DNA of 64,000 bases from Eledone cirrhosa (taxonomy: Eukaryota), in NCBI GenBank assembly GCA_964016885.1, contig OZ024758.1, positions 1,736,001-1,800,000 on the forward strand. Direction: 5' to 3'. The position numbers and the translations under genes are program-made. A model generated the notes under the pieces. That model was not told where the DNA came from, searched no databases, and saw only the letters and a list, made by a program, of their open reading frames with translations. Below, one piece after another: positions 4,201 to 12,707 of the stretch. Positions within the stretch are counted from its first letter, which is position 1, and every line of letters begins with the position of its first letter.

Positions 4201-7200
4201 TCATTGTTTTAACCCTTTAGTATTTAAACTAGCCGTATCTGGCCAGAATTCTCTCACCTCTTCACTTCTTCACCCAGTAATCATTATCCATGAACATTGG
4301 AAATGTAAAGATGAAATTTTTTATGTATATTTTAAATGGCTTTTAATAATTGGTTCCTTTTGTTTTCTCTGCACCAGACATCATTCCTACAAGGTCATTT
4401 GGGACGGAACTTGCGCTATGTTGCCACTATAAACAAAGAACATTTCTCTTCATTCACAATAAATACAGTCCAAGTTTATGGACAAGAAAAGTATCTGCTG
4501 GTTTGTATAAGAATATACTTTTTTTGTCTTTTATTACAGCAGATTATTATTATTTTTTTTATTTTATGTTTGTTATGGTTCAGATGGTCTCTCCAACTTA
4601 ATGTAAAAGAAGATAAAATATGATCGGTAGTGAAATTCAATATATATATATTGGTAGTGAAGTTCTATATATATATATATATATATATTGGTAGTGAAGT
4701 TCAATATGTATATATATTTTGATAATGAAGCTCTATATGTATATAAACCCCTAAACTATATGAAATTTGAGGTGACTTCTCTAAAAAAGGTAAAAACTAA
4801 CAATAAAATAAAGAATATATTTTATATGAGGCGCCTGAGAGTGTGTGGCCAACAATGGTAACCCTTTAGCATTTAACTAGCCGTATCCGGCAGAATTCTC
4901 TCACCTCTTTCTGTTCAAAGCGGCTGTAATCAGCCGCTCATACTGATGTTAAGGTATTGTTCTCAAAATCTCGTAGACTTGATATTATGAGATAATTATG
5001 TAAGATAAAGTCTTTACCACAAAAACCCAATAGTAAATATAGAGTAATGTAAATACTAAAAGGTTAATCTGAAACCATTATTTATTTTTGTTATTTCAGC
5101 TCCATGAAGTTGATGTGTCGCTGTGTGACATGCTAACACCAACAGAAATTAATTGTGATGTTGCCTGCCTTATCTATGATGTCACTAAGCCCAAATCATT
5201 TGAATATGCTGCTAAGATGTTCTTGGTAAGTAGCAGGTGCATTTTATAAAAATCAATAGTTCAATAATGGAAACTATTACCTATCTATATAGATTTTAGT
5301 CTTCACATTTATTATTACTATATATATATATATATATATCATCATCATCATCATCATCATCGTTTAATGTCCACTTTCCACACTAGTATGAATTAGACAG
5401 ATCGTCCCATTTGAGGCAAGTTGGGTCAGGTGACGATAGTATCCTATCATAGCCATAGTAGGCTCCAGCATGGCCATAATAGGCCCCAGCATCACCATAA
5501 TAAGCTCCAGCATCTCCATAATAGACCATAACAGGGTCATAATAGACCCCAGCTTGGCCATAATAGGTCCTATCATGGCCATAATAGGCCCTAGCATGGC
5601 CAAAATCCAATGACTGAAACTAGTAAAAGATTGTTTATAGATGGATTTAAATTACTTATTATAGATGAAGAATGTAAAATTTCTTATTCAAACTATGTCT
5701 ACACTAAAGATATAGTTTGGGAATTTAGCTTTTGAAATTATTGTTTATATTGTTGTAATTGTTTTTTTTTTGTTTTTTTTAACAGAAATATTTTTTTGAT
5801 ACCCGTATCCCTGTATTGTTTGTTGCCTGCAAGGCTGAACACCCAGAAGTAAAACAAGACTTTGAAATGACACCTATTCAGTTTTGTACCAGGTACAAAT
5901 TACCCCCACCACAATACTTTACCTGTATCGACAAAATAAACAGAGACATTTACGTGAAATTAGCTACAATGGCCGCTTATCCGTAAGTATTTAACAAATT
6001 CCGTTATTTGTTTTAAAAGCAATTATTTTAGTCTAACTTTTTCTTTAAAAAAAACCCCAAAACATTCTTATATTCAAATGCATTTGTATCATTTGGTATA
6101 GCCCAACCCCTTCTCTCGCCATTAAACTCTTCACTTTCCAACGAAGAGTTTTGTCTGAAACATTAGAATTCTCTTTTCCTAGATTATTAATGTATCCTAC
6201 TTTATGGGATTTATTGTACTCCGGGCTAACACAGACCTTCACTGGTTTCCACGTTTTTTATAATATATCCATTATTTTATTCCATTGTATTTATGAGCTT
6301 ATTGGAATTATTTTACTGTCGTTTTGTAATATTTGAATTTCTATTGAAAAACGAAACTGGACAAAAGTATAAGGATTTATTTGTATTTTAACAGTTTTTA
6401 TTTCATTTTCAAATATTAATTTATTTTAATATTTTTTCTATTAAATTTTTCCATGGTTGTTCTTTCGATAAAAAAAAAATTTGGTTTTAATATTTAAGTT
6501 CTGTTATTTTTCAATTAGTGAATATAGAAACTGTTAGTCAAAAATATATAATACTTTAAAATAATAAACAAGCTCATAAAACTTATGTAAACAAAGTTTT
6601 TTTTTAATAACATCCATTTTGTTAGCAACATCTCTCGTTTGTATTTCCTTTCATTTTTAATCATTTATGTTAATCCTCTTGACTATATAAAACTATTTTT
6701 CATGTAATACTATAGCTGATATTTTCATGCTATACTATAGCTGATATTTTCATACTATACTATAGCTGATATTTTCATACTATACTATAGCTGATATTTT
6801 CATACTATACTATAGCTGATATTTTCATACTATACTATAGCTGATATTTTCATACTATACTATAGCTGATATTTTCATACTATACTATAGCTGATATTTT
6901 CATACTATACTATAGATATTTTCATGCAATTATCTTTATATAAGACTCCAATGTCCTACCCACATGAAGTCATTTTTCTCACTGATTAACATATAAGTAT
7001 ACATTCAAGTTTGTTGGGTTTGTATTTGAATAATACAAACTTAATTAAATCAGTGAGTGAGAAAACAACCAATGCTGTGTCAATTCTATTTGATAAGCTT
7101 TGTTTCATAATTATATTTATATATAATATTTAATTTCACTTTTTCCCCTTCTTCCTTAGTCATCTTGCTACAAGTTGTCATTTTTTTAAAATTTTATATA

Positions 7201-12707: not shown

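Follow-up and report, generated by a model that had tools for sequence, protein, structure and literature searches.

The last intron of the Miro gene of Eledone cirrhosa, which separates the second GTPase domain from the tail anchor, raises the question of whether it holds optional exons, how many, and what they might do for the protein. Miro is the protein by which transport motors are attached to mitochondria. A sequence-only reading of the window, i.e., the whole stretch of 64,000 nucleotides that was analysed, had proposed a module of three cassette exons (segments A, B and C below), freely combined into eight isoforms.

The Miro locus and its last intron

The 3′ half of the Miro gene lies within the window. 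Over 359 residues, its exons are identical to the Octopus sinensis protein (P0026) at 347 positions, to O. bimaculoides at 349 and to Argonauta at 341. The Pfam domains of P0026 (two GTPase domains, EF-hand pairs, EF_assoc and a C-terminal anchor), together with the model, place the protein in the Miro/RHOT family, and human MIRO1 matches it with an E-value of 8e-242. The last GTPase exon gave one match in the genome, which bears out the earlier view that there is a single Miro gene. The gene extends over about 41 kb, its 5′ exons reaching as far as 29 kb upstream.

The last intron comprises 6,607 nt vs. 207–764 nt in the seven other complete Miro introns of the window. It is thus the longest one there, as had been noticed, but not the longest in the gene: about 19 kb separate the first 13 Miro codons from the next exon downstream (100% match, E 0.08), and this first intron exceeds it. 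The length of the last intron is partly due to dispersed repeats: of its 6,607 bases, 1,366 have a match at another place in the 157 kb compared. Apart from the repeat in segment B, dispersed repeats lie at 8013–8245, 9404–9596, 9735–9957, 10271–10852 and 12126–12344, and minisatellites with units of 21–44 bp are present inside Miro introns at 30–886, 2841–3131, 5448–5606, 6707–6915 and 12343–12541. The features under discussion are as follows:

5786..5982, + strand: last constitutive exon encoding the second GTPase domain; it ends in phase 2, within the Pro codon of ...MAAYP
7290..7358, + strand: cassette exon A, 69 nt, 23 residues (22 plus one junction residue)
7359..7390, + strand: weak donor of A, GAG/gttttt, with a U-rich stretch; likely regulatory site for skipping
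8631..8684, + strand: segment B, 54 nt, probable pseudo-exon; 8640–8725 belongs to a dispersed repeat, of which it is one fragment
11687..11734, + strand: segment C, 48 nt, 16 residues, recorded only together with A (Octopus A+C model)
12590..12707, + strand: terminal coding exon with a short linker, transmembrane tail anchor, basic tail and stop

The two constitutive exons that flank the intron are identical to the Octopus proteins at 61 of 65 and 35 of 38 residues, respectively.

Segments A, B and C

All three segments do possess the splice features ascribed to them: a pyrimidine tract, AG and GT ends, lengths of 69, 54 and 48 nt, phase 2-2, and no stop in any of the 8 in-silico combinations. 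By themselves, such splice-site and frame criteria are weak and do not separate exons from chance; therefore, each segment needed outside evidence. At a pyrimidine cut-off of 0.8, five exon candidates pass in the last intron with donors like Miro's own, two of them outside the proposed three, and eight acceptors pass if any GT is taken as a donor. Strict B-like pseudo-exons, some of which may be real exons, occur six times on both strands of 302 kb of other sequence, or 0.13 times per 6.6 kb, and a Markov null, which under-represents T runs, gave a lower rate, with one or more in 2.5% of its 200 resamples. The boundaries of A and C fit exactly the junction residues of isoforms recorded in relatives.

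We conclude from sequence comparison that segment A is a real, conserved cassette exon of Miro. It has AG/GT ends, keeps the frame, contains no stop, and is identical at 22 of 22 residues to the O. sinensis and O. bimaculoides X1 proteins. Pairs of isoforms that include or skip A at the same junction are on record in 18 named mollusc species: three of Octopus, three of Haliotis, two of Patella, Gigantopelta, Babylonia, Littorina, Aplysia, Physella, Bradybaena, Arion, Argopecten, Magallana and Saccostrea echinata; these records are mostly automatic annotations in which the underlying read support is not visible. The exon is also carried by a chiton and by Solemya. When the upstream exon alone, which is blind to A, was used as a query, 24 Miro proteins were recovered: 15 with A, 6 passing directly to the terminal exon and 3 stopping at the junction. 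The first 11 residues of A are identical in all 15 A-bearing proteins of this search. Furthermore, cephalopod-like Logan contigs of 2–7 kb encode whole A-bearing proteins of 640–643 residues; given that the gene spans about 41 kb, these contigs would represent spliced transcripts.

A bivalve-like genomic contig (L005) has the same exon order, with A again of 69 nt and phase 2, and exon A is the one clear DNA match between this contig and the last intron of the window. Among the 22 codons of A compared, 12 differ synonymously, 4 by replacement and 6 are identical, indicating that the constraint on A acts on the peptide. The same contig gave only chance matches of 4–10 residues to B or C. Behind the A donor of the window, T makes up 22 of 30 nt vs. 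7–18 at nine other valid Miro donors, and the A donor in the bivalve-like contig, CAG/gtcctc followed by 25 pyrimidines in 30 nt, is likewise non-consensus. The weak donor and its pyrimidine-rich flank are thus likely a regulatory feature of A.

Some further observations concern A. If its donor were missed, reading through 7359–7382 would lead to a stop seven codons on and to a Miro without an anchor; similar Miro tails, anchor-less or altered, are recorded for Gigantopelta X3, Mizuhopecten and Patiria X1. In terms of sequence, such a read-through terminal form is possible for A. The idea that A arose as a duplicate of the beginning of the terminal exon found no support, with p < 0.05 in just 2 of 17 terminal exons. 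A metagenome motif scan for A hit Miro at one of four loci and chance matches at the other three.

Segment C is probably restricted to octopods. It shares 12 of 15 residues with XP_036357593.1 and CAI9715225.1, as compared with 96.7% identity for the constitutive Miro exons, and both junction residues are as predicted. These two records, from O. sinensis and O. vulgaris, are identical in sequence and perhaps form one line of evidence. C is single-copy in the genome, and none of the listed rows for O. bimaculoides, Argonauta or the Logan cephalopods contains it. We consider it rather probable that C is a minor octopod cassette exon, likely a young add-on in this group. Conservation in relatives was found for A, which spans the protostomes; among the 402 proteins compared, C occurs in one (the Octopus A+C model) and B in none, its best match being 7 of 17 residues.

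Segment B overlaps a repeat. Its part 8640–8725 is found at 42 other places in the genome with 80–90% identity (40 of the 313 candidates were scored), and about 180 nt are common to the copies. The donor word GTAAGC is present in two of five aligned copies and ATAAGC, one base off, in the other three, so that the donor of B came with the repeat. A GGTTC(G/A)A-type word, which resembles a Pol III box B, stands upstream in all five aligned copies, not in the window copy; this suggests that the repeat under B is probably a tRNA-derived SINE. A MITE reading was dropped for the SINE-like one after alignment of the copies. B is likely not an exon, and its low-level use as one appears distinctly unlikely.

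Hence, we hold it highly improbable that all three segments are in use and freely combined into up to eight isoforms. The frame is open in all eight combinations, the tract of B is good and its donor is GTAAG, chance would supply just 0.13 strict pseudo-exons in an intron of such length, repeats can become exons, and four-way sets do exist in Tachypleus and mammals. Nevertheless, the octopod rows show only three forms, namely none, A and A+C, with no record of C alone, and B, a repeat fragment with an inherited donor, is in 0 of 402 proteins. The eight-way module originally proposed is thus not upheld.

Optional exons at the same junction in other animals

Using the N-terminal Miro region as a query and examining the best 120 of 2,846 matches, we found that this junction holds A-type inserts in nemerteans, in Lingula and the annelid Owenia, in a partial protein of Priapulus and, among arthropods, in a horseshoe crab, in mites and decapods and in Anabrus, a cricket. 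Outside molluscs, pairs with and without A are recorded in Lineus, Tubulanus, Lingula, Tachypleus, Scylla, Eriocheir (A with the cassette X described below) and Anabrus. The A motif is present in 94 of the 402 proteins compared, a set enriched by A-directed searches. By these alignments, A is not an octopod novelty, being at least protostome-wide, and is older and more constrained than first proposed; possibly, it reaches all bilaterians.

Arthropods have a second cassette, X, of 13–14 residues (RFQAAW[MI]LFY-type), which shares the junction with A but lies upstream of it and is without occurrence in molluscan rows. In Tachypleus, all four forms are recorded: none, X, A and X+A (P0175, P0176, P0177, P0091). 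Scylla and Procambarus show three forms each among the rows (P0111, P0191 and P0194 for Procambarus). This X-then-A arrangement parallels the two-cassette set of human Miro1 variants 1–4. The idea that X is a duplicate of A was not supported, as none of ten comparisons was related by score (all ten p above 0.13). In flies, A is absent from all 30 named Diptera rows, of which 13 have X. Four long forms (P0114, P0159, P0142, P0160; three of them from named flies) carry eight residues after X of the LVQLWE type, loosely like the RLV and W of A, which are possibly a remnant of A.

An echinoderm/hemichordate cassette of 26–29 residues also sits at this junction, with include/skip pairs in seven species. 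All six inserts compared with 13 A peptides scored as related to them by shuffling (p 0.002–0.010), the six not being independent of one another. The likeness is centred on LV-H-x-W-x-x-(D/E)-K, but the cassette is longer than A and its first helix has VKG in place of LKRL. B and C showed no relation by score to A, X or the echinoderm cassette. Among lineage-specific inserts at the same place are 13 residues in Tubulanus (P0119), 4 residues in oysters (P0379 and P0384), about 41 in Batillaria (P0014) and about 46 in Arapaima (P0162), the last being the second insert of this fish. From such sequences, the Miro junction intron seems to recruit exons repeatedly.

In human Miro1, both insertions, 1 and 2, directly follow residue 580 (PMC8077184; the L608 numbering is that of PMC5800816). 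The human AMYP580 aligns with the MAAYP at the window junction, so the proposal of optional linker exons lying after the second GTPase domain and before the tail anchor, at the place of the human insertions, proved right. As described in Okumoto 2018 (PMC5800816) and Covill-Cooke 2020 (PMC7001505), variants 2–4 of Miro1 (RHOT1) carry these insertions as exons 19 and 20. The mammalian isoforms make a four-way set, as in Tachypleus. In these papers, insertion 1, reported in mammals only, binds PEX19 and targets peroxisomes, and the L608P substitution in it abolishes PEX19 binding (PMC5800816); both mouse insertions raise peroxisomal localisation, the membrane span being required, and Miro without inserts also reaches peroxisomes via its membrane span (PMC7001505).

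Like insertions 1 and 2, A is an in-frame optional exon at this junction, and its likeness to them is one of position and predicted character. By eye, NLKRLVHML of A and NLRKIWVFL of insertion 1 (as printed in PMC5800816) share three of nine residues, with the basic pair and the hydrophobic spacing kept; a possible kinship with insertion 1 would rest on this nine-residue likeness. None of the proteins compared carries insertion 1. A relationship between A and vertebrate insertion 2 was rejected in all three cases (p 0.79 for Arapaima, 0.98 for Tupaia and 0.85 for Dissostichus). The ranges differ too: insertion 1 is reported only from mammals and insertion 2 from vertebrates, whereas A spans protostomes. 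In the openly accessible literature covered, we found no paper on an invertebrate Miro exon and no experiment on any invertebrate Miro isoform, and the available portions of a bivalve Rho survey (PMC4669188), PMC8919083 and PMC9549241 do not mention such an exon. The isoforms themselves are already in automatic annotations; their common ancestry and constraint seem to be new.

What exon A may do

We tentatively prefer a reading on which we are almost evenly divided, namely that A inclusion shifts part of the Miro pool to PEX19-dependent peroxisome delivery. The 23 residues of A would form a predicted basic amphipathic helix directly ahead of the tail anchor, and the weak donor with its pyrimidine-rich flank would set A skipping. 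The short form, without A, would be mainly mitochondrial, while the long form would gain a further chaperone site, next to the anchor, much as insertion 1 provides one in mammals at this junction.

All three peptides had been called amphipathic or hydrophobic; A is indeed amphipathic (hydrophobic moment 0.48), but B (0.28) and C (0.22) are not. In an AlphaFold2 model of the Octopus protein with A, built from 50 sequences and of low confidence in this region, residues 582–589 and 595–610 form helices separated by a break, and the second, Trp-led helix of A runs into the pre-membrane helix; pLDDT over A is low, with 10-residue means of 53 and 45. Peroxisomal membrane signals (mPTS) are described in PMC4819957 as short basic and hydrophobic helices beside a membrane span. 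A fits this general description as a short helix, predicted with low confidence, that is basic and hydrophobic (moment 0.48) and near the span. Site predictions for PEX19 yield many false positives, as stated in PMC8750153.

A putative 9-residue PEX19-site pattern, which belongs to an error-prone kind of prediction, fits 89 of 94 A-type proteins. The same pattern fits 3 of 571 windows in cytosolic Miro and none of five echinoderm/hemichordate cassettes. The PEX19 gene is present in the genome, with two of its exons on a small contig (G000:C1067, loci L016 and L017). Complex prediction for the A region with two exon-sized PEX19 pieces of this genome, made without alignments, gave a score of 0.02 and a mark of 0.34, which weighs neither for nor against binding.

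The main alternative is that A acts on mitochondria: the invariant helix would dock one partner, such as a motor adaptor, a tether or a ligase, or fold onto the Miro GTPase domain, thus serving as an activity switch and not an address. We regard this as possible, though we lean against it. Known PEX19 sites are degenerate, according to PMC10469627, whereas A, a putative site, is nearly invariant; an invariant 11-mer therefore exceeds the demands of PEX19 binding and suggests that there is one specific partner. These 11 residues are unchanged across four mollusc classes and near-invariant in arthropods, and A contains a conserved His that a degenerate chaperone site does not need. The modal frequency in A is 0.91, as compared with 0.90 at the GTPase end and 0.48 in the next 30 residues (ungapped alignment, in a set partly selected for A). 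Yet the only inserts tested at this junction change localisation, and A is missing from the 30 named Diptera rows. Moreover, unrelated hydrophobic inserts recur here (X, C and the 13-residue Tubulanus exon), which argues for a general property and not for one ligand. This recurrence, with inserts of 13–41 residues and a similar effect of both mouse insertions, might also be read as evidence that the inserts are mere spacers which lift the cytosolic domains off the membrane, their sequence being of little weight. Strong purifying selection on A, with its first helix invariant, makes such a role very unlikely.

If PEX19-dependent delivery is returned to, a broader history may be considered, although we find it rather unlikely as a whole. 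The bilaterian ancestor would already have switched Miro between mitochondria and peroxisomes by an optional exon at this junction, exon A in protostomes and the echinoderm/hemichordate cassette being its survivors. Vertebrates and flies would have lost it and refilled the junction, with vertebrate insertion 2, later in mammals with insertion 1, which would have come by convergence to an N-L-basic-basic-hydrophobic helix, and with arthropod X, while octopods would now be adding C. If true, splice control of the Miro address would go back to early animals instead of being an innovation of mammals; insert-bearing Miro1 variants are called mammal-specific in the founding paper (PMC5800816), and how the mitochondrial and peroxisomal Miro pools are set is called an open question in PMC7001505. 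A offers a short element with an invariant helix, found from octopods to crickets and ribbon worms, that could be studied in Aplysia, Lymnaea, oysters, crayfish and cephalopods. Flies may not model it, as A was not seen in the Diptera rows.

Two exon-sized matches to other families lie farther along the window. At 22262–22612 on the − strand, the glycine cleavage H-protein family is matched (PF01597, E 0.001, under the curated cut-off), which marks a neighbouring gene. The match at 37349–37723 on the + strand is with the ODAD1 coiled-coil family (PF21773, E 0.00014, under the cut-off) and probably belongs to an outer dynein arm docking gene.
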